Assembly: GCA_050698355.1 (NCBI GenBank)
Contig: JBOHBN010000209.1
Location: forward strand, 663-64,662
DNA length: 64,000 nucleotides
DNA from: Streptosporangiales bacterium
GTDB lineage: Bacteria > Actinomycetota > Actinomycetes > Streptosporangiales > WHST01
Direction of reading: 5' to 3'
A program made the translations under genes and the position numbers. The notes below the pieces were generated by a model. The model saw only the letters and a program-made list of their open reading frames with translations, did not search any database and was not told the DNA's origin. This document shows, in pieces, positions 11,065-29,686 of this stretch; the stretch's first letter is position 1, and every line of letters starts with the position of its first letter.

Positions 11065-11095
11065 GAGCTCGGTGCACTCGCCTCAGCGCGCTCGG
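11065..11095. repeat. Right copy of the 31-bp direct repeat
   Basis: Identical to 10466-10496. It contains the last codons (..RAR) and stop of the AraC-family gene. Confidence 0.95.
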
Positions 11096-11907: not shown

Positions 11908-13278
11908 CTAGCCGGGCGAGGGCGCGGCCTCCTGCTTCTTGATGTCCGGCACCTCGGTGCCCCTGAGGGAGGCGCGCGCCGTCTCGGGTGCGCGCCACAC
12001 CGCGATGATGCCGACTACGCAGGCGCCCATCATGTAGTAAGCGGGCCACAGGGTGATGCCGTGCTCCGCAACGACGTACTTGTCGATGAGCGGCACCGTC
12101 CCACCGAACGCCGCTGTGGATATGTTGTACGCGAGCGCGAAGCCCGCGTACCTGACGTGGGTGGGAAAGAGCGCCGGGAAGGTCGCGGAGATGGTGCTCA
12201 GCTGCAACACGAGCAGCAGGCCCAGAACGAGGAAGCCGACCACGGCCCACCCGATGTTGATCCGCATCACAAGGAACGCCGGTATGGACAGTACGAGAAA
12301 GCCGACTCCGGAGATGTACCAGAGCGGTTTTCGGCCTATGTGGTCGGACCATCTCCCAGCGAGATTGATCACGCACATCATGCCCGCGTACACGCAGGCG
12401 GTGATGAGTAGCGCCGTGCTCGAGCTCAGGTGGATTGTGTCTCCGAGGTATGTCGGCATGTAGGTGAGCAGCGTGTAGTCGGTGACGTTCAGCATGATCA
12501 CCATGCCGCCGCAGACCAGCAACGGTCGCCACTGCCGGAAGATGTCCGCCCATTGGGTGGCGGTGCTGGTTTCCTTCTGCCCCGACTCCTCCAGCTCGCG
12601 GAACACCGGGGTGTCTTCGAGCTTTAGTCGCATGTAAAGACCGACGGCGCCGAGTGGGGCGGCGACCAGGAACGGGATGCGCCAACCCCATGCCTGCATC
12701 GCGTCCGGGCCGATGAGGAACGAGACGACCGTAGTGATGACGATGGCCAAGAGATAGCCGGACAGGGTGCCGAACTCCAGGAAGCTGCCGAGGAAGCCGC
12801 GGCGCCTGTTCGGCGCGTACTCGGCCATGAAGGTTGCAGCTCCCCCGTACTCGCCGCCCGTGGAGAAGCCCTGGACCATCCGGAGGAACACCAAGATGAT
12901 CGGCGCGGCGACACCGATGGTGTCGTAGCCGGGCACTACACCGAGCAGGAAGGTGCAGCTCGCCATCAGGATGATGGTGAGGGCGAGGATCTTCTGCCGG
13001 CCGAGCCGGTCGCCGAGTGGCCCGAAGACGATGCCGCCGAACGGCCGTACGGCGAAGGAGACGGCGAACACGCCGAACGCCGACAGGGTTTGCAGCGTCG
13101 GGTCGTCACCTGGAAAGAAGTTTGCGCCGATGGCCGACGCCACGTAGGCATACGAGCCGTAGTCGTACCACTCGGTGGCGTTCCCCATCGCCGAGCCGGC
13201 GATGGCCCGGCGAAGGGTGCTCTTGTCGGGCGCCGCGATGTCGTCGTCGCCCCGGGGTGCCGCGTACTCGTCTGCCAT
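11908..13278 (-). CDS. MFS transporter, metabolite:H+ symporter (ProP/KgtP-like) family
   Basis: Start chosen at ATG 13278 (MADEYAAP..), preceded by GGAGGC. MHS-type motifs include GNATEWYDYGSYAY, GPLGDRLGRQK and VQGFSTGGEYGGAATFMAEYAP. Confidence 0.85.
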   Translation of the reverse strand: MADEYAAPRGDDDIAAPDKSTLRRAIAGSAMGNATEWYDYGSYAYVASAIGANFFPGDDPTLQTLSAFGVFAVSFAVRPFGGIVFGPLGDRLGRQKILALTIILMASCTFLLGVVPGYDTIGVAAPIILVFLRMVQGFSTGGEYGGAATFMAEYAPNRRRGFLGSFLEFGTLSGYLLAIVITTVVSFLIGPDAMQAWGWRIPFLVAAPLGAVGLYMRLKLEDTPVFRELEESGQKETSTATQWADIFRQWRPLLVCGGMVIMLNVTDYTLLTYMPTYLGDTIHLSSSTALLITACVYAGMMCVINLAGRWSDHIGRKPLWYISGVGFLVLSIPAFLVMRINIGWAVVGFLVLGLLLVLQLSTISATFPALFPTHVRYAGFALAYNISTAAFGGTVPLIDKYVVAEHGITLWPAYYMMGACVVGIIAVWRAPETARASLRGTEVPDIKKQEAAPSPG

Positions 13279-13309
13279 CGGGTCGCCTCCTGTAGGTGAG
13301 CCCTTCGGC

Positions 13310-14566
13310 TCAGCCGTTGACCGCCAGGCCGACCGCCTTGGCCCAGATCTCGAGGGCCGCGTCGATCTGCTCGGCTCCCACGACAAGTGCGGGAATCATG
13401 CGTACGACGTTTCCGTGCGCACCGCAAGTTAGCAGCAACAGCCCGTTGTCCGCAGCGGCGCGCTGGGCCCGTTCCGCCGTGTCGGTGTCGGGGTTGCCGG
13501 CCTCGTCGGTGAACTCGTTGCCGAGCATCAGGCCCAGCCCGCGCACGTCGCCGATGACGGAGTGCTCCGCGGCTACGCTACGTAGCCCGTCGGCGAGGCG
13601 CTTGCCCATTCGGCCTGCGTTCTCGACCAGGCCCTCGTCCCTGATCACGTCGAGCGTGGCGCTCGCCGCCACGCACGCAACCGGGTTCGCTCCGTAGGTG
13701 CCGCCCTGCGAGCCGGGCCACGCCTTGGCCATCAGGGCTTCCGGAGCGGCGAGCGCGGAGAGTGGGAAACCGCTCGCGAGGCCCTTGGCGGTGACGAGCA
13801 CGTCGGCGCGGGTGCCGAAGTGGTCGTGCCCCCAGAACCGTCCGGTACGGCCGAAGCCGGTCTGCACCTCGTCCATGACGAGCAAGATGCCGAGCCTGTC
13901 GGCGCGCTCGCGCAGGCCGGCGAGGAAGCGCTCGTTGGCCGGTACGTACCCGCCCTCGCCGAGCTGCGGTTCGACGAAGAACGCCGCGGTGTCGGACGCG
14001 GGTGCGGTCGTCGCGAGCACGTAGTCCAACTCCCGCAACGCGAAGTCGGTGGCCGTGTCCTCATCCCAGCCGTACCTGTAGGCGTACGGGAAGGGCGAGA
14101 CCGCGACACCGGACGGCATCGGGCCGATGCCGGCGCGGAACTTGGTGCCGGAGGTGGTGAGCGCGGCGGCGCCGTACGTCCGGCCGTGGAAGGAGCCGTG
14201 GAACACCACGATGTTCTCCTTGCCGGTGGCCTGGCGTACGAGGCGCATCGCGGCCTCGATCGCCTCGCTGCCGGAGTTGACGAAGAACAGCGAGTCGATC
14301 CCGGGCGGCAGGACCTGGCCCAGCTTCTCGGTCAGGTCGCGCAGCGGCTTGCTGAGCACGGTCGTGTACTGGCCGTGGATCAGCGTCGCCACCTGCTCCT
14401 GCGCGGCGGCGACGACCGTCGGGTGGCAGTGCCCGGTGGAGGTGACGCCGATGCCCGCGGTGAAGTCGAGGTACTGGCGCCCGTCGTCGTCGTAGAGATA
14501 GACACCCTCCCCGCGGGACGCACGCACGGGCGTGGCTTGCTTGAGGTGCGGGGATAGCTGGGCCAT
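13310..14566 (-). CDS. gabT: Class-III PLP aminotransferase, 4-aminobutyrate aminotransferase type
   Basis: Start at ATG 14566 (MAQLSPHLKQ), preceded by GAGGAG. Motifs are GIGVTSTGHCHP, FFVNSGSEAIEAA, LVMDEVQTGFGRTG and TAKGLASG. It is divergent from gabD. Confidence 0.8.
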   Translation of the reverse strand: MAQLSPHLKQATPVRASRGEGVYLYDDDGRQYLDFTAGIGVTSTGHCHPTVVAAAQEQVATLIHGQYTTVLSKPLRDLTEKLGQVLPPGIDSLFFVNSGSEAIEAAMRLVRQATGKENIVVFHGSFHGRTYGAAALTTSGTKFRAGIGPMPSGVAVSPFPYAYRYGWDEDTATDFALRELDYVLATTAPASDTAAFFVEPQLGEGGYVPANERFLAGLRERADRLGILLVMDEVQTGFGRTGRFWGHDHFGTRADVLVTAKGLASGFPLSALAAPEALMAKAWPGSQGGTYGANPVACVAASATLDVIRDEGLVENAGRMGKRLADGLRSVAAEHSVIGDVRGLGLMLGNEFTDEAGNPDTDTAERAQRAAADNGLLLLTCGAHGNVVRMIPALVVGAEQIDAALEIWAKAVGLAVNG

Positions 14567-14581
14567 GGGTAACTCCTCGTA

Positions 14582-14597
14582 GGATTGTTGACAATCC
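14582..14597. promoter_or_regulatory. Palindromic operator-like 16-mer GGATTGTTGACAATCC in the gabT/gabD intergenic region
   Basis: 7-bp arms GGATTGT/ACAATCC with a 2-nt centre. The same core ATTGTTGACAATCC recurs at 23304-23317 and 24722-24735. Confidence 0.55.
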
Positions 14598-14691
14598 GCC
14601 ACGATACAGGCTGTGCTGCCGCCGGCAACAGTGACTCGCGGCGCTCGATACGCTGCGAAGTACGGCAACGTGAGCGAAGGAGTGGTGCGAG

Positions 14692-16161
14692 ATGTCGACC
14701 CTTGAACAGGAGACCTCGGTCGTCAAGGCGGTACCGAAGGACCTGTACATCGGGGGCTCGTGGCGCCCCGCGGAGGGTGGCGCGACGTTCGACGTCGAGG
14801 ACCCGGCGACCGGCAAGACGCTCTGTGCGGTCGCCGACGCGTCTCCCGCGGACGGCATGGCGGCAATGGATGCGGCCGTGGCCGCGCAGGGGGAGTGGGC
14901 GCAGTACCCGGCACGCGAGCGCGGCGAGATCCTGCGCCGTGGCTACGAGGCGTTGATGGACAGGCAGGACGAGCTCGGCCTGCTCATGACGCTGGAGATG
15001 GGCAAGCCGCTCGCGGAGGCGAAGGGCGAGATCGCGTACGCCGCGGAGTTCTTCCGCTGGTTCGCCGAGGAGGCGGTTCGCATCGACGGCGGCTACGCTC
15101 CGTCCGCGAACGGCCAGGACCGGGTCATCGTGATGCGTCAGCCCGTCGGCCCGACCATCCTCATCACGCCGTGGAACTTCCCGATGGCGATGGGCACGCG
15201 CAAGGTCGGCCCGGCGATCGCCGCCGGCTGCACCGTGGTGCTGAAGCCCGCCGACCTGACCCCGCTCTCGGCGCTCGCGATGACCGAGATGCTCGAGCAG
15301 GCCGGGCTGCCGGCCGGCGTGGTCAACGTGGTGACCACCAAGGACGCCGGCGGGGTGATGGAGCCGCTGATCCGCAGTGGCAAGGCGCGCAAGCTGTCGT
15401 TCACCGGCTCGACCGCGGTCGGCAAGAAGCTGCTGGAGCAGGCGTCGGAGAAGGTGCTGCGCACCTCGATGGAGCTGGGCGGCAACGCGCCGTTCCTCGT
15501 CTTCGACGACGCCGACCTCGACGCCGCCGTCGACGGCGCGATGCTCGCCAAGATGCGCAACGTCGGGGAGGCGTGCACGGCGGCCAACCGGTTCTACGTG
15601 CACGAGTCCGTCGCCGACGACTTCGCCCGCCGGCTCGCCGGGCGGATGTCGGCGTCCGTGGTCGGTCGCGGTACCGACGATGGCGTCACGGTGGGCCCGC
15701 TCGTCGAGGGGCGCGCGGTGGAGAAGGTCCAGGGCCTCCTCTCGGACGCTGTGGACAAGGGCGCGCGCGTCGTGACCGGAGGCGAGCCGACGAACGGCAC
15801 CGGGCACTTCTTCACCCCGACCGTGCTCACCGACATCCCCGAGTCGGCGCAGATGCGGCGAACCGAGATCTTCGGTCCGGTCGCCGCGATCTCCACGTTC
15901 ACGTCCGAGGACGAGGTGATCGCGGAGGCGAACGACACCGAGTACGGGCTGGTGTCGTACGTCTACACCCGTGACCTCGCCCGGGCGCTGCGGGTGTCCG
16001 AGCGGCTGGACTCCGGCATGGTCGGCCTGAACAAGGGCATGGTGTCGAACGCCGCGGCCCCGTTCGGCGGTGTCAAGCAGTCCGGCATCGGCCGCGAGGG
16101 CGGCCGGCTCGGCATCGAGGAGTTCCTCGAGGTCAAGTACGTCGCCGTACCCGCGCCGTAA
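14692..16161 (+). CDS. gabD: NAD(P)+-dependent succinate-semialdehyde dehydrogenase
   Basis: 489 aa of the aldehyde dehydrogenase family with ITPWNFP, FTGSTAVGKKL, ELGGNAP and EEIFGPV-like (TEIFGPV) motifs. GAAGGAG lies before the ATG. Confidence 0.85.
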   Translation: MSTLEQETSVVKAVPKDLYIGGSWRPAEGGATFDVEDPATGKTLCAVADASPADGMAAMDAAVAAQGEWAQYPARERGEILRRGYEALMDRQDELGLLMTLEMGKPLAEAKGEIAYAAEFFRWFAEEAVRIDGGYAPSANGQDRVIVMRQPVGPTILITPWNFPMAMGTRKVGPAIAAGCTVVLKPADLTPLSALAMTEMLEQAGLPAGVVNVVTTKDAGGVMEPLIRSGKARKLSFTGSTAVGKKLLEQASEKVLRTSMELGGNAPFLVFDDADLDAAVDGAMLAKMRNVGEACTAANRFYVHESVADDFARRLAGRMSASVVGRGTDDGVTVGPLVEGRAVEKVQGLLSDAVDKGARVVTGGEPTNGTGHFFTPTVLTDIPESAQMRRTEIFGPVAAISTFTSEDEVIAEANDTEYGLVSYVYTRDLARALRVSERLDSGMVGLNKGMVSNAAAPFGGVKQSGIGREGGRLGIEEFLEVKYVAVPAP

Positions 16162-16490: not shown

Positions 16491-16529
16491 TGCCTGTCCT
16501 TCCTGTCCTTCCTGGCTCCTGCGCCGGCG

Positions 16530-18441: not shown

Positions 18442-18463
18442 TGGCTCCCTCCGTCCGCCGGCC

Positions 18464-18688: not shown

Positions 18689-18689
18689 G

Positions 18690-19442
18690 TCAGTCGCCCG
18701 GTACGAAGTCGTACGGTGCCTGTGGACCGATCAGGCGCAGCCTCATCCGTGCCGACTCTCGCTTGCCGAGGCTCTCCACCGCTTCCTCCAGGCCCGTGTG
18801 CCCGGTGCGGTCCACGAGCAAGGCGGCGTCCAGCACGTCCTCTGGCGTCCCCGGCTCGCGGCTCTCGACGGCGCGGATGTGAGGATCAAGCGCGTCGAGC
18901 ATCGCCGCCGCGTCGGCCGCGGCCTTGCGGCCCAGCACTCCGACGACGAGTTCGCCCAAGCGGACGCTCTGCCCGTACACCGGCTGTTCTCGCGTGGCGG
19001 TGCTGAGGTGCTCGATCTCCGGGTCCTCTGCGACGATCTCGCGCAGCAACGGCTCCTCGAGGTAGCGAGCCCGCAGCGTGTACTGCACCGCTCCCGCGAG
19101 CTCGGCGAGCAGCTCGGCATACCGGTCGAGCGCGGGCCCCAAGCCCGCCTCGAGGGTGCCCTCGTCCGCGACGGTGCCGAACCGCAGCGGCAGAACATCG
19201 CTTCGCGCCGCGACCGCGTCGAGCACCCGGCTGTGCGCGAGCAGGTCGTCGCGGGTCGTGATGTCCCGGCCGGCCTCGATCGGGCTGGCGAGCAGCGCCA
19301 GGTCAGCGGCATCCAGCAGCACGAGGTCGCGCGCGCCGCCGACACCCACCAGATCGCCCGGAAGGTCACCGCGTGCGGCCATGACGCCGTACAGGTAGTA
19401 CGCGGTCGCCTGGCTCGCCTGGCTCGCCTGCGCCGCGGTCAT
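18690..19442 (-). CDS. gvpF: Gas vesicle protein F (GvpF/L family)
   Basis: 250 aa with [49 protein letters not shown] overlap with gvpA. Confidence 0.8.
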
Positions 19443-19894
19443 CGCTCGCTCGAGGATCTACGGCGCGTCTGTTGTTGGCGCGGCTTCTCTGTTTGCTGGG
19501 ACCGTCGCCTGGGCTGGCGCTCGGATTCGCTCTCGTCCTTGTCCTCGTCGGAATCGCCGGTCAGCGTTTCCTTGATGCCCGACAGCGCGCCGGCGGTCTT
19601 GCCCTTCGCGCCGCCCTCGGTCATGCTCTCCATCATCTCGGGCAGGTCCTTGCCGCCCTGCTGCGTGAGGTCCAGCCTGCTCGTCGCCTCCGCGAAGCGC
19701 AGGTAGGTGTCGACGCTCGCGATGACGATGCGGGCGTCGATGGTGAGCAGCTCGATGCCCACCAGCGAGACGCGGACGTAGGCGTCGATCACCATGCCCT
19801 TGTCGAGGATGGTGTCGATGACGTCGGCGAGTGAGCTCGCCTGCGGGCGGTCGACGTACCCGCCTCTGGAACGCTGCGTCGTTGCGACAGTCAT
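19439..19894 (-). CDS. gvpA: Major gas vesicle structural protein GvpA with a long charged C-terminal extension
   Basis: 151 aa. The core [51 protein letters not shown] is near-canonical GvpA. About 75 further residues are rich in D/E/K/R/Q/S. Confidence 0.9.
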
Positions 19895-19897
19895 GGG

Positions 19898-21019
19898 TCA
19901 CCTGCTCCTTCCAGACGTCGCCGGGCGGCGAGTCCTGCGATTGCGGGGTGCTTCCTCGGCCGGTTCTTCCGGCGCTTCCTCTTCCTCGTCCTCCGGCGCT
20001 TCCTCTTCCTCGTCCTCCGGCTGTTCCTCGTCCTCGTCCTCCGGCTGTTCCTCGTCCTCGGCTGCCGGCTCCTCCTCGGGCGACTCCTCGTCGTCCTCGT
20101 CCTGTGGCTCATCTTCAGACCCGGGCGGCTCCTGATCGTCTCGGCCCTCGCCGCTCTCGTCCTGGTCTTCCTCTTCCTCGGCCAGCGCGTCCTCGTGGCT
20201 CTTGACGACCTCGCTGTCACGGATCTCGCCGCGCCAGCCCTCGACGTCGTCGGGGTCGAGGATCGTCTGGGTCATCACGTGCCGGCGGAAGTGCTTGAGC
20301 TCGAGCCGGGCACGGCGCCCCTGCGCGCGCCACAGGTTCCCCGTCTTCTCGAAGAAGCCCTGCGGGTGGTACTCGAGCACCACCAGGATCCGGGTCAGGC
20401 GCGGGCCGAGCTCGTGGAAGGTGACGGTTCCGTCGACGTGGCCCTTCTGTCCCGATGAGCGCCACACGATGCGGTCGTCGGGAACCTGCTCGGTGATGGT
20501 CGACTCCCAGGATCGGTGCGACCAGAAGACCTGAGCCTTCAGGTTGACCTTCCCGTCCTCCTCCTGCTCGGCGTGCTCCACCTTCTTCATGAAGCTGGTC
20601 CAGTCCTGGTACTGCGTCCACTGGTTGTACGCGACCCGCACCGGTACGCCGACGTCGATGTCCTCGACGATGTTGGTGACCTTCACGTCACCACCTCCTC
20701 CGCCGCTCGAGCCGCCGCCCAGCGCTTCCTTCACCTTGTCCCCGACGCCGGAGAAGACCCCCTTGAGCGCACCCTTCGCCGGGGACCCACCCTGAGCGCC
20801 TTCCTGTGCCCCCCGTATCGCGGCCATCAGGCCCGGGCCGCCCTTGTCGTTCGCGTACTCGGTGAGCCGCTCGGTGAGACCCTGTGCCTGATCTACCAGG
20901 GAGTTGGCGCCCCGCTCCGCGAATGCGAGTGCCACGTTCTTCAGCTCGTCCTTCAGCCGGTCGGTGGGAAGGTCGCGGGCAAGCTCGCCCAGGCCGGGTG
21001 TGCTCTTCGCGTCAGCCAT
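19898..21019 (-). CDS. SRPBCC (cyclase/dehydrase-like) domain protein with helical/Gly-rich N-terminus and a poly-acidic, then basic, C-terminal tail
   Basis: Start at ATG 21019 (MADAKSTPGL). The central part VKVTNIVEDIDVGVPVRVAYNQWTQYQDWTSFMKKVEH...IVWRSSGQKGHVDGTVTFHELGPRLTRILVVLEY looks SRPBCC-like. The tail is EEEDQDESGEGRDDQEPP..EDEEEEAPEDEEEEAPEE..RNRRTRRP. It lies directly upstream of gvpA. Confidence 0.65.
   Translation of the reverse strand: MADAKSTPGLGELARDLPTDRLKDELKNVALAFAERGANSLVDQAQGLTERLTEYANDKGGPGLMAAIRGAQEGAQGGSPAKGALKGVFSGVGDKVKEALGGGSSGGGGGDVKVTNIVEDIDVGVPVRVAYNQWTQYQDWTSFMKKVEHAEQEEDGKVNLKAQVFWSHRSWESTITEQVPDDRIVWRSSGQKGHVDGTVTFHELGPRLTRILVVLEYHPQGFFEKTGNLWRAQGRRARLELKHFRRHVMTQTILDPDDVEGWRGEIRDSEVVKSHEDALAEEEEDQDESGEGRDDQEPPGSEDEPQDEDDEESPEEEPAAEDEEQPEDEDEEQPEDEEEEAPEDEEEEAPEEPAEEAPRNRRTRRPATSGRSR
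19971..20060. repeat. Tandem 24-bp repeats (about 3.75 units) inside the acidic-tail coding region
   Basis: GGCGCTTCCTCTTCCTCGTCCTCC occurs twice (19971-20018). GGCTGTTCCTCGTCCTCGTCCTCC follows about 1.75 times (20019-20060). Together they encode the EEEAPEDE/EDEEQPED repeats. Confidence 0.9.
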
Positions 21020-21566
21020 TGGACTTGCTCCCTCGCTGCCGCGACGAGCTCTTGGTCGACCTGCTCGAGCTCGTCGACTTGCGGCGGGAACTCGTCGAAC
21101 CCCCGCGACTGGAGCTGCTGCGCTTGCGCGCCGGCTGCGGTTCGGGTTCGGGCTCGGGCTCTTCCTCGTCGTCGGCCGATTCCTCGTCGTCGTCGGCAGG
21201 TTGCTCATCGGACGGCGGTTCCTCGTCCGCGGGCGGCTCCTCCTCGCCGGTACCCTCCGATCCGGGGGACCGCAACTGCGTCGCGCGCTGCTGGAGCCGA
21301 TCGCTCAGCGCGTCCATGCCCTTGCCGGCAGCCGCTGCCGCGGCCTCGCGGCCCGCGTCGGCGAGGCGGCCGCGTGCGTCACCGCCAATGCGCTGCAGCG
21401 CCGGTGAGGACTCGAGCAGGTTCTTGCCCTGCTCGAGCAGCGCGGTTCTGTCCAGACGCTTGCCGGCGGCAACCGCGCCGAGCATCAAGGCGAGCTTCAT
21501 CTTCTTGGTCCGGCCGAGGGCGTAGCCGATGGCTATGCCGAGCGCGACCGTACCTTGCGATTTCAT
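21012..21566 (-). CDS. Hypothetical protein: N-terminal hydrophobic segment, Ala-rich helical region, poly-acidic stretch, Ser/Arg/Lys-rich tail. First gene of the gvp operon.
   Basis: Start at ATG 21566 (MKSQGTVALGIAIGYALGRTKKMKLALMLGAVAAGK), preceded by GGAGAG. The C-terminus is ..EEEPEPEPEPQPARKRSSSSRGGSTSSRRKSTSSSRSTKSSSRQRGSKSNG. It overlaps the next gene by 8 nt. Confidence 0.55.
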   Translation of the reverse strand: MKSQGTVALGIAIGYALGRTKKMKLALMLGAVAAGKRLDRTALLEQGKNLLESSPALQRIGGDARGRLADAGREAAAAAAGKGMDALSDRLQQRATQLRSPGSEGTGEEEPPADEEPPSDEQPADDDEESADDEEEPEPEPEPQPARKRSSSSRGGSTSSRRKSTSSSRSTKSSSRQRGSKSNG

Positions 21567-21858: not shown

Positions 21859-22524
21859 TCAGGCCTGGTGTGGCGCCAAGCGGCCGATCGCGTCGTGCAT
21901 GTGGTCCTCGAGCAGCGCCAACGCGCGGTCGGTGTCCTGCTCCTTGATCGCTTCGACAATGCTCGCGTGCTCGGCGGCGAGGTCCGCGGGCGCGTGGTAC
22001 TTGCTCGGCAGCGCGGCCATGCACATGCGTGTCTCGACGAGCAGCGTACGCGCCATGCGTTCCAGTCGCGCGCTGCCCGACTCGGCGACGAGCACCTCGT
22101 GGAAATCGAGGTCGCTGCGGCTCAGCGCCGCGTGGTCGCGTTTCTTCGCGGCCCGCTCCATCCGGGCGGCGGCCTTGCCGAGGCGGTTCGCCGCACCCGG
22201 GTCCGCCTGCTGGACGATCATCGTCACCGCGGCGCCCTCGACCGCCATCCTGGCGGCGTAGATGTCGTCAATGTCCGCTGGGGTCAACTCCGTTACGAAA
22301 AGGCCGCGGTGCCGGACGCTGCGAAGCAGGCCCTCCTGCACCAGCCGCTGCATCGCCTCGCGCAACGGTCCGCGGCTCACGCCGAAGCGGGCGGCGAGGT
22401 CCGCCTCGCCGAGCTGGTCACCCTGGGCCAGCGCGCCGGACATGATCGCCTCGCGCAGTTGGTCGGCGATGAGGCCCGCGGTCGGTTCGCGGCTGATCGG
22501 CTTGAGCGAGTCGGCTGGCGCCAT
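21859..22524 (-). CDS. GntR/FadR-family transcriptional regulator
   Basis: 221 aa with GDQLGEADLAARFGVSRGPLREAMQRLVQEGLLRSVRHRGLFV (wHTH) plus an FCD-type C-terminus. It starts 3 nt after the stop of the upstream isomerase-like gene. Confidence 0.85.
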   Translation of the reverse strand: MAPADSLKPISREPTAGLIADQLREAIMSGALAQGDQLGEADLAARFGVSRGPLREAMQRLVQEGLLRSVRHRGLFVTELTPADIDDIYAARMAVEGAAVTMIVQQADPGAANRLGKAAARMERAAKKRDHAALSRSDLDFHEVLVAESGSARLERMARTLLVETRMCMAALPSKYHAPADLAAEHASIVEAIKEQDTDRALALLEDHMHDAIGRLAPHQA

Positions 22525-22527
22525 CGC

Positions 22528-23286
22528 CTATGCCCTTGCGCGATCCGGCGACAGGCGGAACAGCGCGCCGAGCCCGGCGGCCCGCTCGTGGTGGCCGGCG
22601 AGCCGCAGCCCCTCCCAGGCGGTGACCTGGTTCGCGGTGAGCACGGGCTTGCCCGCCGCGGCCTCCATCGCGTCGAGCCATGCGACGGTGTGCAGGGCTG
22701 TGTCGGGCAGGAGCACGGCCTCGGCGTCAGCGGCACCGCTCTCGGCGGTCGACGCCGCGAGCTCCAGCACCGCCTCCCGGCCGAGGTCACCGACGTCGGC
22801 GGCCTGCAGGATGTCCTTGCTGGTGAACGACACCACCTCGATGCCGCCGGCCGCGAGGAACTCCACGAACCTGGCGGCGATGCCCTCGGGGTACGTAGCC
22901 GCGACCGCGACCCGGCGCACGCCGAGCGCGTGCGCAGCCTCGACGAACGCGATGGACGTGCTGGACGCGGGTACGTCGGCGGTCGAGGCCAGGGTGTCGG
23001 CCTGGTCACGCGCGCCGTCCCAGCCGAACACGAAGCTGCCGCTCGTACACGCCCACATCACGGCGTCCGGGCGGTGCGGTGCCAGCTGACGCCACCCTGC
23101 GGCCAGCTCGTCCGGCTGACCGACGGCGAGCAGGTTGTCCTCGGTGTGGGCGACGTCGTCCGGCGTGGTGTGCACGAGCGGGAGCGCGACGCTGGAGCCG
23201 AGCAGCCGCTCGACGCCTGCGTAGTCGTCCTCGGCCGCGTAGCCGGGGTAGAGCATGCCGACGGTCGTGTTCTCGGCCACGAACAC
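22528..23286 (-). CDS. Asp/Glu/hydantoin-racemase-superfamily protein (maleate cis-trans isomerase / arylmalonate decarboxylase-like)
   Basis: 252 aa with VGMLYPGY..., MWACTSGSFV (first Cys motif), RRVAVAATYP and GKPVLTANQVTAWEGLRL, typical of the maleate isomerase family. Confidence 0.7.
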   Translation of the reverse strand: MFVAENTTVGMLYPGYAAEDDYAGVERLLGSSVALPLVHTTPDDVAHTEDNLLAVGQPDELAAGWRQLAPHRPDAVMWACTSGSFVFGWDGARDQADTLASTADVPASSTSIAFVEAAHALGVRRVAVAATYPEGIAARFVEFLAAGGIEVVSFTSKDILQAADVGDLGREAVLELAASTAESGAADAEAVLLPDTALHTVAWLDAMEAAAGKPVLTANQVTAWEGLRLAGHHERAAGLGALFRLSPDRARA

Positions 23287-23302
23287 CTCCAGGGCAGTCG
23301 CT

Positions 23303-23336
23303 GATTGTTGACAATCCTACTGGCCCTTCCTAGCGT
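23303..23336 (+). promoter_or_regulatory. Sigma-70-type promoter (TTGACA-N17-TAGCGT) embedded in an ATTGT-N2-ACAAT operator, upstream of the DUF3830 gene
   Basis: GATTGTTGACAATCCTAC-N9-CTAGCGTCA. The -35 is at 23308-23313 and the -10 at 23331-23336. The 18-mer and the CTAGCGTCA are identical to the copy at 24721-24754. Confidence 0.6.
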
Positions 23337-23383
23337 CAACACCTACCATCGTCGGCACGTCGAAACGAAGGTGGAGGCCCAGA

Positions 23384-23884
23384 TTGGCCAGATACATCGA
23401 GATCTCCTTGGACAAGCGGGGCGTGACCTGTGTCGCGCAGCTGCTCGACGACCTCGCTCCGCGTACGTGTGAGGCGATCTGGAAGGCGCTGCCGGTGGGG
23501 TCCGACGCGTACCACGGCAAGTACGCGCGCAACGAGATCTACACCCTCGTCCAGGCGTTCGCCGACCCCGAACCGGGTGCGGAGAACACCACCATCACCC
23601 CCATCCCCGGCGACCTGTGTTACTTCTCGTTCCCGAAGGCGGAGATAGCGACGCCCTCGCACGGGTACGGCACGTCCGAGGAACCGTACAAGGCGGATCG
23701 GATCGTCGACCTCGCGCTGTTCTACGAGCGGAACAACCTGCTGTTGAACCCGGACTCCGGCTTCGTTCCCGGCAACGTGTTCGCCACCATCACACAGGGC
23801 CTGGCCGACATGCGGGAGGCGAGCGAGGACCTGTGGAAGCGCGGCGTCGAGGGGGAGACGCTGACGCTCCGCCGCAAGGAGTAG
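23384..23884 (+). CDS. DUF3830-family (cyclophilin-like fold) protein
   Basis: 166 aa MARYIEISLDKRGVTCVAQLLDDLAPRTCEAIWKALPVGSDAYHGKYARNEIY..PGDLCYF. TTG start after GAAGGTGGAGG. The family call is from memory of DUF3830 sequences. Confidence 0.6.
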   Translation: MARYIEISLDKRGVTCVAQLLDDLAPRTCEAIWKALPVGSDAYHGKYARNEIYTLVQAFADPEPGAENTTITPIPGDLCYFSFPKAEIATPSHGYGTSEEPYKADRIVDLALFYERNNLLLNPDSGFVPGNVFATITQGLADMREASEDLWKRGVEGETLTLRRKE

Positions 23885-23894
23885 GCCGGGCAAC

Positions 23895-23938
23895 GTGTCA
23901 GTAGCTCAGCCCGCTACAGCGAGCTGAGCTACTGACAC
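23895..23938. terminator. Perfect 16-bp-stem hairpin between convergent genes. Member of the ACTGACA palindromic repeat family.
   Basis: GTGTCAGTAGCTCAGC (23895-23910) / GCTGAGCTACTGACAC (23923-23938). Confidence 0.6.
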
Positions 23939-23942
23939 CCGG

Positions 23943-24686
23943 TCAATCGAACAGGCGCTGGCCGTTCGGCGCCGCTGTGCCGCCGCAGCTGCGCAGCGCC
24001 GACCAGATGCTCACCTGGTTGGCGGTGAGGACCGGCTTGCCCAACGCGCGCTCGAGCGGCGTGATCGCGTCGAAGGTCGGCAGGTTCGTGCAGCTGACGA
24101 ACACCGCCTCCGCGTCCGGCCGGTCGGCGGCGAGCACGAGCTGTACGAGCTCCGCGTACGGCACGAGCCAGATGTGCTCGAGCAGCCCGAGGTGCGCGCT
24201 GGACACGACGGTGACGCCCGCCTCGGCGAGGAAGTCGTGCAGGCGAGTCGTCATGCTCTCCACGTACGGTGTCGCGACCGCGAGCCGGCTGATGCCGAGG
24301 TAGTTCACGGCGTCGAGCAGCGCGCCGGAGGTCGTAACCGCAGCGGGCGCGCCCACCGACCCGATGGCCTCCCGCAAGTCGCGCTCGCCGGCCATGCCGT
24401 GCACGAAGCTGCCCGAGGTGCACAGGTAGACGACCACCTCGGGCTCTGCAGTCAGCACCTCGGCGGTACCTGCCTGGACGGTCGCGTAGTCGCTCACGAG
24501 CTCGGCCATCTCGACGGTGACGGGGACGGCGAGACGCGGCGTGCGCGTGATGTGCAGCGATGTGGTGTCCGGCACCCATCGCCAGACCTCCCGGTCCAGC
24601 GCGAAGTCGTACGGGGTCACGATGCCGATCCCGTGTTGAGGCAGGACTTCTGCCACCTCGACGGGAACGCGCACGGTCTGCTCCAA
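23943..24686 (-). CDS. Second Asp/Glu-racemase-superfamily (maleate-isomerase-like) protein
   Basis: 247 aa with IGIVTPYDF, VVYLCTSGSFV, SRLAVATPY, FVSCTNLPT and GKPVLTANQVSIWSALR. It is a paralogue of 22528-23286. Confidence 0.7.
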   Translation of the reverse strand: MEQTVRVPVEVAEVLPQHGIGIVTPYDFALDREVWRWVPDTTSLHITRTPRLAVPVTVEMAELVSDYATVQAGTAEVLTAEPEVVVYLCTSGSFVHGMAGERDLREAIGSVGAPAAVTTSGALLDAVNYLGISRLAVATPYVESMTTRLHDFLAEAGVTVVSSAHLGLLEHIWLVPYAELVQLVLAADRPDAEAVFVSCTNLPTFDAITPLERALGKPVLTANQVSIWSALRSCGGTAAPNGQRLFD

Positions 24687-24720
24687 CCAGCCACCTCCGC
24701 TTCCGACGACGCCGCCGCGA

Positions 24721-24754
24721 GATTGTTGACAATCCTACGGTCGCTGTCTAGCGT
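24721..24754 (+). promoter_or_regulatory. Second copy of the promoter/operator module (TTGACA-N17-TAGCGT)
   Basis: GATTGTTGACAATCCTAC-N9-CTAGCGTCA. The -35 is at 24726-24731 and the -10 at 24749-24754. A GTG at 24762 lies 7 nt after the -10. Confidence 0.6.
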
Positions 24755-24761
24755 CACGGCG

Positions 24762-25733
24762 GTGGCCAACCCTCCAGAACTCGTCGTGCTGTGCGATGAC
24801 TCCCGCCCGTCCGGCATGGAGGAGGTCGAGCGGCTCGCGCGTGTCCGGTACGTACAGCCCGCCGAGCTGCCCGACGCGATCGGTGACGCCGACGCGCTGT
24901 TCATGTGGGCGTTCCAGTCGACCGCGCTGGCCGATGCGTGGCCGCGCGCCCACCGGCTGCAGTGGGTGCACACGGCGAGCGCCGGCGTCGACCGGGTCCT
25001 GATCCCGGAGGTCGCGAAGAGCGACGTGGTGGTAACCAACTCCCGTGGCGTGTTCGACGACGCGATCGCCGAGTACGTGCTCGGCCTCGTCCTGCTGTTC
25101 GCCAAGGGCATGCACGACACGCTCGCCCGGCAACGCACCCGTACCTGGGAGCACCGGGATACCGAGATGGTGGCCGGCCGGTCGGCCCTCGTCGTCGGTG
25201 TCGGGCCGATCGGCCGGGCGGTGGGGCGGCTGCTGGCCGCCGCCGGCATGCACGTGAGCGGGGTCGGGCGTACGGCGCGTAGCGAAGACCCGGACTTCGG
25301 TACGGTGCTGGGGTCGGCGGACCTCGCCGACGCGTTGCCGGCGGCCGATTACGTGGTGGCCGTGGCGCCGCTCACCGAGGAGACGAGGGGGATGTTCGAT
25401 GCGGCCGCGTTCGCCCGGATGCGGTCCACCGCACGATTCATCAACGTCGGGCGCGGTCCGCTCGTGGTGGAGCGCGACCTGATCGCGGCGTTGCGCGAGG
25501 AACGGATCGCCGGCGCGGGACTCGACGTGTTCGAGGAGGAGCCCTTGTCGTACGATTCCCCGCTGTGGTCGATGTCCAACGTCGTCGTGTCCCCGCACAT
25601 GTCCGCCGATTACGTCGGTTGGCTGGATACGCTCGCCCGCGTGTTCGTCGATAACTTCCATCGCTGGCATGGTGGAGAAGAGTTGCGAAACGTCGTCGAC
25701 AAGTGGCTCGGTTACGTGCCGTCAGCCCCATAG
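24762..25733 (+). CDS. D-isomer-specific 2-hydroxyacid dehydrogenase family protein
   Basis: NAD-binding motif VVGVGPIGRAVGRLLAAAGMHV, plus INVGRGPLV and AGLDVFEEEPL. The start was set at in-frame GTG 24762 (MANPPELVVLCDD) and the mRNA is probably leaderless. The track ORF start at 24174 is antisense shadow. Confidence 0.8.
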   Translation: MANPPELVVLCDDSRPSGMEEVERLARVRYVQPAELPDAIGDADALFMWAFQSTALADAWPRAHRLQWVHTASAGVDRVLIPEVAKSDVVVTNSRGVFDDAIAEYVLGLVLLFAKGMHDTLARQRTRTWEHRDTEMVAGRSALVVGVGPIGRAVGRLLAAAGMHVSGVGRTARSEDPDFGTVLGSADLADALPAADYVVAVAPLTEETRGMFDAAAFARMRSTARFINVGRGPLVVERDLIAALREERIAGAGLDVFEEEPLSYDSPLWSMSNVVVSPHMSADYVGWLDTLARVFVDNFHRWHGGEELRNVVDKWLGYVPSAP

Positions 25734-25746
25734 GAGGTAGCCGAGC

Positions 25747-27153
25747 ATGGCAGACACTGAGGGTGCGCTGCGCACCGCGGCGCAGCTCGTCGCCGCGTAC
25801 AAGCAGGGCGACCTCTCCCCGGTCGAGGCCACCCAGGCGACCCTAGACCGCATCGACCAGCTGAACGACACGGTCAACGCGTACTGCCTCGTCGACCGCG
25901 ACGCCGCCCTCGCCTCCGCGCGCGCGTCCGAGGCGCGCTGGCGACGCGGCGAGCCGAGCGGCCCGGTGGACGGCGTCCCGACCTCGATCAAGGACATGTT
26001 CCTCACCGCGGGCTGGCCGACGCTACGCGGTTCACACACGGTGAGCGAGGACCAGAACTGGGACGAGGACGCGCCGTGCGTCGCCCGGCTTCGCGAGACC
26101 GGCGCGGTGCTCGTCGGCAAGACCACGACGCCCGAGATGGGCTGGAAGGGCGTCACGGACAGCCCGCGTACCGGGGTCACCCGCAACCCGTGGGACCTGT
26201 CGAAGACCCCCGGCGGGTCGAGTGGGGGGAGCGCGGCGTCGGTCGCCCTCGGCATGGCACCACTCAGCGTCGGCACCGACGGGGGTGGCTCGGTACGCAT
26301 ACCAGGCGCGTTCAGCGGCGTCTTCGCGCTGAAGCCGACGTACGGCCGGATCCCGATCTACCCGCCGAGCGCGTTCGGCACGCTGTCGCATGCGGGTCCC
26401 ATGACGTGGACCGTTGAGGACGCGGCGCTGCTGCTCGACGTGGTTACCGGGCCCGACGGCCGGGACTGGTCCGCGCTCCCCGAGCCCGTGGGCTCGTACA
26501 CCGGCGGGCTCGGCAGCGGCGTTCTCGGCCGGCGCGTCGCGTTCAGCCCGGCACTCGGCTACGTCGACGTCGACCCGGAGGTCGCCGCCGTGGTCGCGTC
26601 CGCGGTCGACGTCCTCTCCGGGCTCGGCGCGCAGGTGGAGGAACGCGATCCGGGCTTCACCGACCCCATCGATGCCTTCAACGTGCTCTGGTACTCCGCC
26701 ACCGCGAAGATCGTGGAGCCGCTGTCCGACGAGGATCGTGCGCGCCTGGATCCGGGGTTCGCGGAGGTCGCCGAACTGGGTGCCGGCTACTCCGCGGTGG
26801 ACTATCTCGGTGCCAACGCCGAGCGGATGAGCCTGGGCTCGATGATGGGCAGGTTCCACGAGACGTACGACCTGCTCATCACACCGACCGTCCCGATCCC
26901 GGCGTTCGACGCCGGGCAGGAGGTACCGACCGGCTGGCCGCACAAGAGGTGGACGAGCTGGACGCCGTTCAGCTACCCGTTCAACATGACCCAGCAGCCG
27001 GCAGCGACGGTTCCTTGCGGGTTCACCTCGGGTGGGCTTCCGGTCGGGTTGCAGATCGTGGGCCCGCGGCACGCGGACGGACTCGTGCTCTCGGCTGCCA
27101 AGGCCTTCGAGGACGCCCGGCCCTGGACGGATCACCGGCCGCAGCCCGCGTAG
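25747..27153 (+). CDS. Amidase-signature (AS) family amidase
   Basis: 468 aa with GVPTSIKD, GGSSGGSAASVA and GTDGGGSVRIPGAFSGVFALKPTYGRIP (the Ser-cisSer-Lys signature region). Confidence 0.9.
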   Translation: MADTEGALRTAAQLVAAYKQGDLSPVEATQATLDRIDQLNDTVNAYCLVDRDAALASARASEARWRRGEPSGPVDGVPTSIKDMFLTAGWPTLRGSHTVSEDQNWDEDAPCVARLRETGAVLVGKTTTPEMGWKGVTDSPRTGVTRNPWDLSKTPGGSSGGSAASVALGMAPLSVGTDGGGSVRIPGAFSGVFALKPTYGRIPIYPPSAFGTLSHAGPMTWTVEDAALLLDVVTGPDGRDWSALPEPVGSYTGGLGSGVLGRRVAFSPALGYVDVDPEVAAVVASAVDVLSGLGAQVEERDPGFTDPIDAFNVLWYSATAKIVEPLSDEDRARLDPGFAEVAELGAGYSAVDYLGANAERMSLGSMMGRFHETYDLLITPTVPIPAFDAGQEVPTGWPHKRWTSWTPFSYPFNMTQQPAATVPCGFTSGGLPVGLQIVGPRHADGLVLSAAKAFEDARPWTDHRPQPA

Positions 27154-27694: not shown

Positions 27695-29008
27695 CTACCA
27701 GTTGTGCTCGTCGCTCACGTTCGGCGGCAGCGGGACGTTCGCCGGGTGGATGACGTACGCGATGCCGCCGGAGTGCGGCACCCACGCGTTCTCGACCTGG
27801 TCGCGCCTGTAGACGCGGGTGACGCTCGCGTCGTGCGCGGTCGCCGGGTCGTTGATGATGACGTCGCCGTCGGCGGTGAACCCGGTGATGACGAACAGGT
27901 GCCCGTTGGTGGAGTACCCGGCGCCGTCCATGTCCTCCGCGTCGAACGACACCGAGATCACCAGCGGGATGCCCGCCTTGATGAACTGCTCGGCCTCGGC
28001 CAGTGACCGCAACCGCGTGACGAACGACTCCATGTGCGGGAACTCCGCGGCGTACGCGGCGTTGAACGGCCAGTTGCCCGCACCGTCGTAGTTGTAGTCG
28101 AAGGTGTACCGGGCGGCGTAGTCGACCTGCGGGTCGACGTGCGGCTTCGGCTCCACCCACCGCAGCTTGGCCTGCGGCACCCGACGGTTCCAGGAGTACA
28201 CGTCCATCGTGGTGGAGGTCGGTGAGCACCAGGCCTCGCCGCCGTTGTCGTACTGCGGGTAGTGGCCGACGTGCTCGTCCTGGGAGAACTCCGGCACGTC
28301 GAGCGCGACCCGCTTGCCCAACGTGAATTTGCTCGTCGGTACGGTCTCGGTGCCCGGCAGCCGGGACGCCATCAGGCCGATCTTGGACAGCCGCGGCGTC
28401 GCGTTCGTGCCCTTCGGGCGCAGCAGCGTCACCTTGAGCTGGTACGCGTCGATGCTCGTGCCGTCGCTCGCCTTGTAGGTGTCGATCGCGATGTAGCCGT
28501 CGTCATCGCCCTGGCTGGGTACGGACGTGCGGTGGATGTCCCCGTGCGCGTAGTCGTCGCCGGACGCCCAGCGCCCCATGATGTACCACTTCGTCCAGCC
28601 CGGGTGGTTCGCGCGGCGGCCACGCATCTGGATCTGCACCCAGGTGCCGGTGGGCGTCCGCGCGTTCCAGGAGGCCACCGCCTCGGTCGCGCCGAAGCCG
28701 AGCTGATGCACCGGCGAGGTCCAGGTGCCGGAGTCGTACGTGCGCGCGCCGGCGTCGCCGAACGGGTCGGTGTAGGAGAACGGTTCGGCGTGCTTGCCGA
28801 GCCGCAGGCGGTTGCCGAGCACGCGGGTGCCGTCGGTCTCACCGTGCTGCAGGCCGCGCGTCCCCTTCCACTGGTGGTAGGAGACGTGCCTGTCCGGCAC
28901 GCTCTGCTGGCTGGGGGCGGCCGCGGCCGCCCCGGGAAGGACGAGCGCGGTGGTCGCCGCGGCAGCCGTGGCTGCCAGCAGCAGTTTGGTATGAAGCCTT
29001 CGTGCCAT
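27695..29008 (-). CDS. Secreted papain-like cysteine peptidase (peptidase C39-like domain) with an N-terminal beta-rich domain
   Basis: Signal peptide MARRLHTKLLLAATAAAATTALVLPGAAAAAP. Candidate catalytic residues are GEAWCSPTS (Cys), STNGHLFVITG (His) and IINDPA (Asp). Confidence 0.6.
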   Translation of the reverse strand: MARRLHTKLLLAATAAAATTALVLPGAAAAAPSQQSVPDRHVSYHQWKGTRGLQHGETDGTRVLGNRLRLGKHAEPFSYTDPFGDAGARTYDSGTWTSPVHQLGFGATEAVASWNARTPTGTWVQIQMRGRRANHPGWTKWYIMGRWASGDDYAHGDIHRTSVPSQGDDDGYIAIDTYKASDGTSIDAYQLKVTLLRPKGTNATPRLSKIGLMASRLPGTETVPTSKFTLGKRVALDVPEFSQDEHVGHYPQYDNGGEAWCSPTSTTMDVYSWNRRVPQAKLRWVEPKPHVDPQVDYAARYTFDYNYDGAGNWPFNAAYAAEFPHMESFVTRLRSLAEAEQFIKAGIPLVISVSFDAEDMDGAGYSTNGHLFVITGFTADGDVIINDPATAHDASVTRVYRRDQVENAWVPHSGGIAYVIHPANVPLPPNVSDEHNW

Positions 29009-29115
29009 CTCGGGCCTCCCGAGAGCAAGCCGGGGTCGGACAGTGGCTCAGCGTAGACCCTCGGCCACGCCTGTCGCACCTATCTGACCCGATTACGGCG
29101 GAGCGTGAAGGTTTC

Positions 29116-29601
29116 CTACGCGTCCGCGCGCTCCCCCTTGCCGCCATCGAGCATCTCGCGGGTCGCCTCGCGCAACGCCGTGGTGCTGAGTCGCAGGTAC
29201 CGGACGACCACCTCGACGTCGGCGTCGCTGAACTCGGGCGCCAGCGCCAGTAGCCGCTGCCGTACCGGTTCGAACACGGCCTCCGCGTGCCGCGTGCGTT
29301 CCGGATCGATCTTCACGATGACGCGCCGCCGGTCGCCTGGGTCGCTGGCGCGGTGCACGTAGCCGGCAGCTTCCAGGCGGTCGATCATCCGGGTGGTCGC
29401 GCCCGTGCTGATCCGCGTGCGGGCGGCGAGCTCGCCGGCGGTAAGCGGGCCAGTCGCGATCAGGATGTTGAGCCCGTCGACGTCGGTGAGGTTGAGTCCG
29501 AGCAGCTCTGCGCCGACCTGGCTGTTGAGCGAGACGGCCGCGATGAACTCGCGATACAGCGGCTCGACGTCGGCGTGAGGAATCTCGCGGTCCGTTGACA
29601 T
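29116..29601 (-). CDS. MarR-family transcriptional regulator
   Basis: 161 aa with LTAGELAARTRISTGATTRMIDRLEAAGYVHRASDPGDRRRVIV. It is divergent from an efflux pump gene. Confidence 0.9.
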   Translation of the reverse strand: MSTDREIPHADVEPLYREFIAAVSLNSQVGAELLGLNLTDVDGLNILIATGPLTAGELAARTRISTGATTRMIDRLEAAGYVHRASDPGDRRRVIVKIDPERTRHAEAVFEPVRQRLLALAPEFSDADVEVVVRYLRLSTTALREATREMLDGGKGERADA

Positions 29602-29686
29602 CCTGTCCTTTCACTGCACAGTATCTGCGCAGTGCAGATAATTCCTGTGCGCAATGGTACCGGTACGAGCAGCGAGGAAGGACCAC

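Follow-up and report, generated by a model that had tools for sequence, protein, structure and literature searches.

A FadR-type-regulated gene set of Actinomycetota that may serve the uptake and catabolism of ectoine-type osmolytes

The 64,000-nucleotide stretch analysed here (the window; contig JBOHBN010000209.1 of a Streptosporangiales bacterium) holds at 21859-27153 six adjacent genes, which encode a GntR-superfamily regulator, two paralogues of the Asp/Glu-racemase superfamily (Iso1 and Iso2), a DUF3830 protein, an NAD-dependent D-isomer-specific 2-hydroxyacid dehydrogenase (HADH) and an AS-family amidase. On balance, we interpret this region as the core of an actinobacterial regulon, repressed by a FadR-type GntR protein, for the uptake and catabolism of ectoine-type tetrahydropyrimidines, the most likely candidate solutes being ectoine, 5-hydroxyectoine or N-acetyl-diaminobutyrate derivatives. 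A substrate of this type is suggested because transporters of the Ehu, BCCT and ProP kinds, a DoeA-like hydrolase, a likeness of both paralogues to EutA and a pair formed by a class-III aminotransferase (AT3) and an aldehyde dehydrogenase (ALDH) come together around this gene set. An initial annotation, made from the letters of this stretch, had described a compact co-regulated catabolic cluster acting on a dicarboxylate amide or imide; it was right in kind, wrong in chemistry and too narrow in extent, and we agree with its statement that the substrate is not deducible from this sequence alone, comparative context being needed.

A conserved gene set under a common operator

A genome scan with a DUF3830 alignment returned at least 589 species-level matches, from which the 80 best loci were fetched and their genes mapped by tblastn with the window proteins and by targeted Pfam and NCBIfam scans; additional loci (Nonomuraea, Microlunatus, Bounagaea) were reached by look-ups starting from Iso1. 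Linkage was counted in the 62 loci with at least 8 kb on each side of DUF3830, a partner being scored when it lay within 10 kb. HADH accompanied DUF3830 in 57 of these loci, Iso1 and Iso2 in 56 each, GntR in 53, AT3 in 51, and the AS amidase and ALDH in 48 each, counts that are inflated relative to independent observations because about half of the sampled loci were from Amycolatopsis. Beyond that genus the gene set was present in Streptomyces, Mycolicibacterium, Arthrobacter, Cryobacterium, Glaciibacter, Nesterenkonia, Jiangellaceae, Nocardioidaceae, Rubrobacteraceae and others, with DUF3830 linked to these families in at least eight actinobacterial orders. The look-ups from Iso1 found the same partners, DUF3830 included, in Microlunatus and Bounagaea; the set was also recovered in Nonomuraea, where DUF3830, HADH and the amidase were not in the stretch read. 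The initial annotation had staked its proposal on DUF3830 keeping company with these enzyme families in other genomes, and since this linkage was clearly found, the proposal stands on that point; linkage and operator together support a compact co-regulated catabolic cluster. An ELFV amino-acid dehydrogenase was inserted next to DUF3830 or an Iso gene in loci L001, L002, L005, L008 and L086, where recycling of transaminase-derived glutamate or deamination of an alpha-amino intermediate would be possible roles of this Glu/Leu/Phe/Val-type enzyme.

Pfam and NCBIfam scans confirmed the coordinates and families first given for the six open reading frames. They form four transcription units, namely Iso1-GntR (minus strand), DUF3830 (plus), Iso2 (minus) and HADH-amidase (plus), and a 36-nt block, GATTGTTGACAATCCTAC...CTAGCGTCA, occurs twice between them, at 23303-23338 and at 24721-24756, with 86% identity over the 36 nt. 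The common promoter/operator module of the initial annotation was thereby confirmed, whereas its count of three transcription units gave way to four, departing from two bidirectional modules. In the first copy the predicted operator ATTGTTGACAAT (palindrome GATTGT-TG-ACAATC) overlaps a TTGACA -35 element, which is followed by a 17-nt spacer and TAGCGT; in the second copy the minus-strand promoter of Iso2, TAGACA-17-AACAAT, overlaps the same predicted operator. Since this opposite-strand promoter lies in the same block, each module is best described as a putative face-to-face bidirectional promoter with one common operator, ATTGT-NN-ACAAT, which overlaps the -35 element of the rightward promoter and the -10 element of the leftward one. 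A sigma-70 promoter scan missed the plus-strand promoters because TAGCGT fits TATAAT at only three of six positions.

A third operator copy, GGATTGTTGACAATCC (14583..14598, exact core 14584-14595), was found 9 kb upstream, in the divergent region between AT3 and ALDH, a position that is also filled in most orthologous loci; the co-regulated unit would therefore be larger than 21859-27153. The window thus counts three operator cores (six matches, as the palindrome matches both strands) against 0.41 expected. In the comparative set, 74 of the 81 sequences contained the operator, with 185 sites in total where base composition predicts 0.06; the sites listed lay upstream of HADH/Iso2, Iso1, DUF3830, ALDH/AT3, EhuB and the DoeA-like module.

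The regulator itself (GntR; 21859..22524, minus strand) is the second gene of the Iso1 operon, behind a 3-nt gap. It has the features of the FadR subfamily, with an N-terminal GntR winged helix-turn-helix domain (PF00392, 67 bits), a C-terminal FCD domain (PF07729, 81 bits) and a predicted palindromic operator of the TNGT-N-ACNA type.

Transaminase, semialdehyde dehydrogenase and transporter under the third operator

AT3 (13310..14566, minus strand) is a GabT-like omega-aminotransferase of the 2-oxoglutarate type (NCBIfam PRK08117, 446 bits), whose best PDB matches were 4-aminobutyrate (GABA) aminotransferases (E = 1e-83) and which shares 68% identity with its Amycolatopsis counterpart, a gene translationally coupled to DUF3830. 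ALDH (14692..16161, plus strand) is a semialdehyde dehydrogenase resembling GabD and SSADH (TIGR01780, 583 bits; E = 1e-160 with E. coli GabD, PDB 3JZ4). On family-level likeness, AT3 would correspond functionally to Atf/DoeD and ALDH to Ssd/DoeC. Directly downstream of AT3 follows a ProP-like MFS metabolite/H+ symporter (11908..13386, minus strand; true start probably near 13300), with ProP as its best NCBIfam match (443 bits, below the cut-off of 544) and 393 bits with the MHS subfamily TIGR00883. Its orthologues (53-58% identity) adjoin AT3 in Mycolicibacterium, Nocardioidaceae and Arthrobacter loci, and MFS genes occupied the same place in loci L088 and L089.

Transporters and hydrolases of orthologous clusters point to an ectoine-type solute

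In Cryobacterium ruanii an ABC transporter is placed between HADH and Iso2, behind its own operator copy, and its EhuB, EhuC, EhuD and EhuA subunits scored 245, 249, 255 and 374 bits against NCBIfam equivalog cut-offs of 191, 197, 205 and 345. A divergent EhuABCD set, with all four subunits above these cut-offs (EhuB/C/D/A 273/239/250/382 bits), is transcribed divergently from DUF3830 in Streptomyces meridianus, and Arthrobacter globiformis likewise has an Ehu transporter, whose EhuB was above its cut-off. The Cryobacterium binding protein matched the S. meliloti EhuB structure 2Q88 with 199 bits, the next match reaching 49, and the positions that we take to be ligand-contacting in 2Q88 (Glu, Phe/Tyr, Tyr, Phe, Arg) were conserved in the aligned protein. 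A BCCT transporter was found in the clusters of Jiangellaceae and Rubrobacteraceae and a ProP-like MFS carrier elsewhere; ABC, BCCT and MFS transporters are among the four known families of ectoine importers (PMC5924519).

Eleven of the 80 loci carried a DoeA-like protein of the M24/Creatinase_N type, accompanied in eight of the 11 by an ArgE/DapE-type M20 deacylase and in most by a class-I/II aminotransferase. By far the best family for this M24 protein was the ectoine hydrolase DoeA/EutD (416 bits, below the cut-off of 613). The gene lies within the Iso2...Iso1-GntR operon in Bounagaea and Microlunatus, and in Nonomuraea it is downstream of an Amdase-like gene, adjoining the Ehu genes. Two Microbacteriaceae loci had the M20 deacylase and no AS amidase in the stretch read; the deacylase being present where the amidase is missing, a role of the AS amidase as N-deacetylase would fit. 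In Cryobacterium an acetate-CoA-ligase-like gene follows DUF3830.

Enzymes that oxidise D-2-hydroxy acids recurred next to AT3/ALDH: besides the NAD-dependent HADH of the core, a tartrate/D-malate dehydrogenase (505 bits, cut-off 470) is attached to the pair in Amycolatopsis, an Iso_dh-family gene takes its position in Bounagaea and Fodinicola, and FAD-dependent D-2-hydroxyacid dehydrogenases resembling GlcD or YdiJ stand beside it in Amycolatopsis, Arthrobacter and Nonomuraea. This recurrence suggests a hydroxylated C4 acid as intermediate or product. A DUF4262 protein is conserved between GntR and the tartrate-dehydrogenase/ALDH genes in locus L029 (5606-6100, minus strand) and in Amycolatopsis orthologues.

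Iso1 and Iso2 differ at the second catalytic position

Iso1 (22528..23286, minus strand) and Iso2 (23943..24686, minus strand), both Amdase-like members of the Asp/Glu-racemase superfamily by Pfam and NCBIfam, with a weak match to PF01177 (Asp/Glu racemase), share 39% identity. Arylmalonate decarboxylase (AMDase) was their best solved-structure match; in the alignment to it both paralogues place the C-T-S of their C-T-S-x-S-F motif at Gly74-Thr75-Ser76, and at the position of Cys188 Iso2 reads S-C-T-N and Iso1 P-D-T-A. The paired cysteine motifs initially ascribed to both proteins therefore hold for Iso2, in which C89 and C199 were conserved in 63 of 63 orthologues, and not for Iso1, which has Cys80 and, at the second site, Asp195 (C80 in 62 and D195 in 63 of 63 orthologues). 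The natural Cys/Cys pair of Iso2 is the arrangement of the engineered AMDase G74C racemase; the Asp of Iso1 has no described parallel among the solved homologues matched here. Residue conservation argues for functionally distinct, co-conserved enzymes rather than duplicate isomerases.

EutA (TIGR02990) was the top NCBIfam family for both paralogues, neither of which reached the equivalog cut-off for maleate isomerase, AMDase or EutA. Against the AMDase family NF052327 both scored about 89 bits (cut-off 225), with Cys instead of Gly at the first site; against the solved structures, Iso1 and Iso2 scored 32 and 63 bits with maleate isomerases and 48 and 82 bits with AMDase. The two cysteines that mark maleate isomerases are both present in Iso2 and reduced to one in Iso1 (Cys80/Asp195). 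These scores and the lack of the second Cys in Iso1 do not support the maleate-isomerase-like role initially given to the paralogues. Public records (NCBI, JGI) name Iso1 orthologues 'maleate cis-trans isomerase' despite the absent second catalytic Cys, and 5288 relatives of Iso1 were found at E <= 1e-10 among 8000 candidates scored; this looks like systematic over-annotation, and such database names are probably wrong for several thousand related proteins.

A two-thiol epimerase together with a thiol-replaced paralogue recalls the proline-racemase superfamily, in which 4-hydroxyproline 2-epimerase has a Cys/Cys pair and trans-3-hydroxyproline dehydratase a Cys/Thr pair, loss of the thiol leading to beta-elimination of the hydroxyl. 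The substrates there are hydroxylated cyclic amino acids; fold and superfamily are unrelated, and for Iso2 and Iso1 this analogy could serve as a mechanistic lead only.

DUF3830, the dehydrogenase and the amidase

The DUF3830 protein (23384..23884, plus strand; 166 aa; PF12903, 197 bits against a cut-off of 26) is monocistronic in the window and has a clear GAAGGTGGAGG ribosome-binding site, unlike the dehydrogenase. It matched the uncharacterised Arthrobacter structure 3KOP (E = 6.5e-68). The family is small, with 447 representatives at E < 1e-3 among 1.84 billion proteins, and strongly constrained, with 60-78% identity across orders and many invariant charged residues; the invariant positions include H44, K46, R49, E51, E67, D77, R116, N117 and D124. 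The predicted model (predicted local distance difference test score, pLDDT, of 92) has a cyclophilin-like fold, and its closest folds after 3KOP were the bacterial Pictet-Spenglerases McbB and KslB, relatives of cucumopine synthase, together with TM1367 and AF2241, two small proteins of cyclophilin-like fold (Foldseek E about 1e-6, TM-score about 0.6). McbB and KslB join an amino acid to an aldehyde or a 2-oxo acid, e.g. succinic semialdehyde; DUF3830 differs from them in its half size (166 versus about 300 aa), its 14-22% identity and its catabolic context. The N-terminus of McbB gave a weak profile match (E = 0.085), which supports a remote relationship, and the profile search against the PDB gave no residue-level correspondence between DUF3830 and the catalytic residues of McbB.

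DUF3830 usually follows the amidase gene, or is translationally coupled to AT3 in Amycolatopsis; our guess is that it carries out a C-N ring-opening or iminium-handling step with the amidase. Distant members (36-46% identity) have neighbours that include amidohydrolases, a class-III aminotransferase or RidA; these contexts were uninformative or different and show only a tendency to accompany C-N hydrolases and class-III transaminases. Distant DUF3830 genes were arranged in tandem pairs in locus L084 (7467-8498), after an Amidohydro_1 gene and an ABC transporter of the peptide type, and a fused double-domain protein of 333 aa (P0157, locus L085) was seen as a single instance, which hints that DUF3830 may work as a dimer or pseudo-dimer beside amide hydrolases. 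In Fodinicola acaciae (L081, 6986-17433) DUF3830 lacks the amidase, dehydrogenase and Iso genes, stands after AtuA and a FAD monooxygenase, and adjoins TetR, class-III aminotransferase, ALDH, Iso_dh and urease genes; this locus is a different wiring of the DUF3830/AT3/ALDH trio. A literature search for 'DUF3830' found no paper mentioning the family, which is thus absent from the papers searched in spite of its solved structure.

HADH (24762..25733, plus strand; PF02826, 173 bits; PF00389, 38 bits) shows in its translation the GxGxxG NAD site as GVGPIG, the motifs VGRG, FEEEP and SPHMS, and the Arg/Glu/His triad. Its best PDB match was the Haloferax D-2-hydroxyacid dehydrogenase 5MH5, and it reached no specific NCBIfam equivalog (best 240 bits, cut-off 400). 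The start is probably GTG at 24762, which lies about 7 nt past the TAGCGT -10 element and leaves no room for a ribosome-binding site, so that the mRNA would be leaderless. After a 13-nt gap the same operon continues with the AS amidase (25747..27153, plus strand; PF01425, 330 bits; NF004815/PRK06169, 741 bits against a cut-off of 506), which displays the GGSSGGS and TDGGGS signatures and the Lys/cis-Ser/Ser residues, and whose nearest solved enzymes were aryl acylamidase, GatA and NylA.

A possible route and its weak points

The textbook route of ectoine degradation leads through N-acetyl-diaminobutyrate, diaminobutyrate and aspartate semialdehyde to aspartate. In clusters where the DoeA-like hydrolase, the M20 deacylase, AT3 and ALDH are found together, they already complete this route; the five core genes (Iso1, Iso2, HADH, amidase and DUF3830) must add something, and they probably serve a hydroxylated branch. 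5-Hydroxyectoine is the candidate second substrate because Ehu imports it, because D-2-hydroxy-acid-oxidising enzymes recur beside AT3/ALDH and because EutA has been linked to 5-hydroxyectoine, by proposal only (PMC5924519).

The solute would enter via the ProP-like MFS symporter, or via EhuABCD or BCCT in other genera. Ring opening and removal of the N-acetyl group could be the work of the DoeA-like M24 hydrolase and the M20 deacylase in fuller clusters, DUF3830 and the AS amidase being the candidates for these steps in the window. The GabT-like transaminase and the GabD-like dehydrogenase would then turn the omega-amino group into a carboxylate, so that a C4 dicarboxylate results, while both EutA-like paralogues and HADH would most likely handle the chemistry of the 5-hydroxyl and alpha carbon of the hydroxylated solute, by way of a 2-oxo or D-2-hydroxy acid. 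Iso2, of the two-thiol epimerase type, could epimerise a stereocentre; Iso1, of the Cys/Asp type, could be a cofactor-independent enzyme that eliminates a beta-hydroxyl or decarboxylates. The substrate class is supported by genomic context and the individual step assignments are guesses. In its most specific form, the proposal would be an Actinomycetota route for 5-hydroxyectoine and/or ectoine that dispenses with EutD, EutE, EutB and EutC, using DUF3830 as a new C-N ring-opening enzyme with the AS amidase, a Cys/Asp dehydratase or decarboxylase with a two-thiol epimerase, and a D-2-hydroxy acid as carbon carrier; we put this forward as a speculative scheme that is rather unlikely to be right in all its parts.

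Several observations weigh against an ectoine-type regulon. The substrate is a genomic inference from neighbours in other genomes, and tblastn found neither Ehu genes nor a DoeA-like gene in the 64-kb window, whose own transporter is only ProP-like and below the cut-off. EutA likeness stops far from the family cut-off of 318 (98 bits for Iso1, 110 for Iso2), AT3 and ALDH are closest to ordinary GABA-shunt enzymes, and the regulator is of the FCD type, not the MocR-type EnuR of known ectoine clusters. Distant DUF3830 members occur in unrelated contexts, and Amycolatopsis dominates the linkage sample. The five core genes might also serve a different co-regulated substrate, the path from ectoine to aspartate being complete without them in clusters that have the DoeA-like, M20, AT3 and ALDH genes.

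Alternative substrates

The most likely rival substrate is some other zwitterion, N-acylated or with an omega-amino group, whose degradation feeds into the GABA shunt. N-acetyl-GABA, 4-guanidinobutyrate, an N-acetyl-diamino acid and an opine are candidates, and so is a hydroxylated aminobutyrate (4-amino-2-hydroxybutyrate, 4-amino-3-hydroxybutyrate, or an amide or lactam of these); transporters of the Ehu type and the DoeA-like hydrolase would then have shifted in specificity. True GabT and GabD are the closest relatives of AT3 and ALDH, the DoeA-like protein stays under the DoeA cut-off (416 versus 613 bits), the structural relatives of DUF3830 include opine-type Pictet-Spengler enzymes, and oxidation of a hydroxy-aminobutyrate would yield D-malate, fitting the attached tartrate/D-malate or FAD-dependent D-2-hydroxyacid dehydrogenases. 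However, in two divergent lineages the Ehu subunits, all four of them, score above their curated equivalog cut-offs, three different families of ectoine-type carriers have been recruited to one regulon, and EutA is the best-matching family for both paralogues, so that we regard a GABA-shunt compound as a serious but doubtful alternative.

Two further explanations fare worse. The initial annotation favoured as substrate an unsaturated or substituted dicarboxylate in amide or imide form, such as maleamate, succinamate or a cyclic imide, from which the amidase would release a diacid for isomerisation by a maleate-isomerase-like enzyme, as at the end of nicotinate degradation. An amidase does stand together with proteins of the maleate-isomerase superfamily, public annotation calls the paralogues 'maleate cis-trans isomerase', and dehydrogenases able to act on D-malate, the hydration product of maleate, are attached in some genera. 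This chemistry nevertheless leaves unexplained why a GabT/GabD-like pair is conserved under the operator of the cluster, and why Ehu, BCCT and ProP transporters and a DoeA-like hydrolase occur with it; moreover, Iso1 lacks the second catalytic Cys, Iso2 is nearer to AMDase than to maleate isomerase (82 versus 63 bits), and among the neighbours no gene for ring cleavage, a deformylase or a NicF-type protein was seen. We consider it improbable, and slightly more so a system of racemases and an amidase acting on D/L-amino-acid amides, hydantoins or N-carbamoyl compounds, in which the paralogues would equilibrate stereoisomers ahead of a stereospecific amidase: the superfamily does hold hydantoin and Asp/Glu racemases, the two thiols of Iso2 are typical of racemases and an AS amidase is at hand, but no hydantoinase or carbamoylase was conserved in the neighbourhoods, and it has no place for HADH, the pair resembling GabT and GabD, the transporters of osmolytes or the DoeA-like hydrolase. 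The pantothenate, arginine-oxygenase, lysine (Dav) and oxidative-pyrimidine pathways, which were considered because of the amidase/transaminase/ALDH/Iso_dh combination, leave the racemase-like pair, DUF3830 and the osmolyte transporters unexplained.

Relation to known systems and significance

With an ectoine-type solute as the preferred substrate, the closest known systems are the proteobacterial ectoine clusters, composed of ehuABCD or uehABC with eutABCDE, asnC, ssd and atf, or of doeABCD (PMC5924519, PMC13188858), and, among Gram-positives, the clusters tentatively described in 2026 on the basis of EutD (PMC13188858). Orthologues of our gene set have in common with them EhuABCD equivalogs, BCCT and MFS carriers, EutA-like genes of the racemase superfamily, predicted control by a GntR-superfamily repressor, the AT3 and SSADH-like ALDH that parallel atf and ssd on family-level likeness (PMC13188858) and, in some genomes, a DoeA/EutD-like M24 protein with an M20 amidohydrolase that matches the Gram-positive 'abgB'. 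In contrast, EutB (a pyridoxal-phosphate-dependent dehydratase), EutC (an OCD-like reductase), EutE, EnuR and AsnC are absent; in place of EutB, EutC and EutE we found the Cys/Cys and Cys/Asp EutA-like paralogues, HADH, the AS amidase and DUF3830, and the regulator is of the FadR/FCD type with its own operator. Most versions, that of the window included, also lack a EutD homologue, and surveys based on EutD would therefore miss such clusters.

The likeness to NicF/NicE and Ami/Iso of nicotinate and nicotine degradation lies in an amide hydrolase beside a protein of the Asp/Glu-racemase superfamily. Here, however, the amidase is of the AS family and not isochorismatase-like, the paralogues are not maleate-isomerase orthologues, one of them is without the second Cys, upstream ring-cleavage genes are missing and the conserved partners are others. 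Literature searches on AMDase together with amidase, hydroxyacid dehydrogenase and GntR, and on EutA together with amidase, found nothing relevant, and no experimental study of EutABC since 2019 came up; amidases go unmentioned in the 2026 Gram-positive ectoine-cluster survey (PMC13188858). As judged from gene content, the cluster would best be filed as a new actinobacterial form of the ectoine/hydroxyectoine catabolic clusters, in which EutB, EutC and EutE are replaced by unrelated enzymes.

Ectoine and hydroxyectoine rank with the most abundant osmolytes of microbes; actinomycetes belong to their major producers, and 5-hydroxyectoine was discovered in Streptomyces. Because most of its versions lack EutD, a widespread and tightly regulated actinobacterial gene set may have been overlooked, predicted ectoine consumers having long been thought to be restricted to Proteobacteria (PMC5924519). 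The gene set gives an experimental handle on three orphan enzymes, DUF3830 and both 'maleate isomerase' paralogues, and bears on the biochemistry of hydroxyectoine removal, the roles of EutABC being so far proposals.

Other features of the window

A 21-nt inverted repeat (23895..23938; 95% complementary, 2-nt loop) between the convergent DUF3830 and Iso2 genes is probably a bidirectional terminator hairpin without a T-tract; a consensus terminator scan that requires a T-run made no call, this hairpin included. Downstream of the amidase, 27695-31369 encodes a probably secreted Peptidase_C39_2 protein and a divergent pair resembling MarR and an MFS drug-efflux carrier, which have no operator copy and appear unrelated to the regulon. 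The ProP-like transporter is followed immediately downstream by an AraC-family regulator (11083-11865, minus strand). In this genome the halves of the regulon are kept apart by a gas-vesicle gene cluster (16275-21208, minus strand), which was not at that position in the other loci examined and which contains two GvpL/F genes, two of the GvpA/J type, GvpO and a gene for an SRPBCC (Polyketide_cyc) protein with a long acidic tail.

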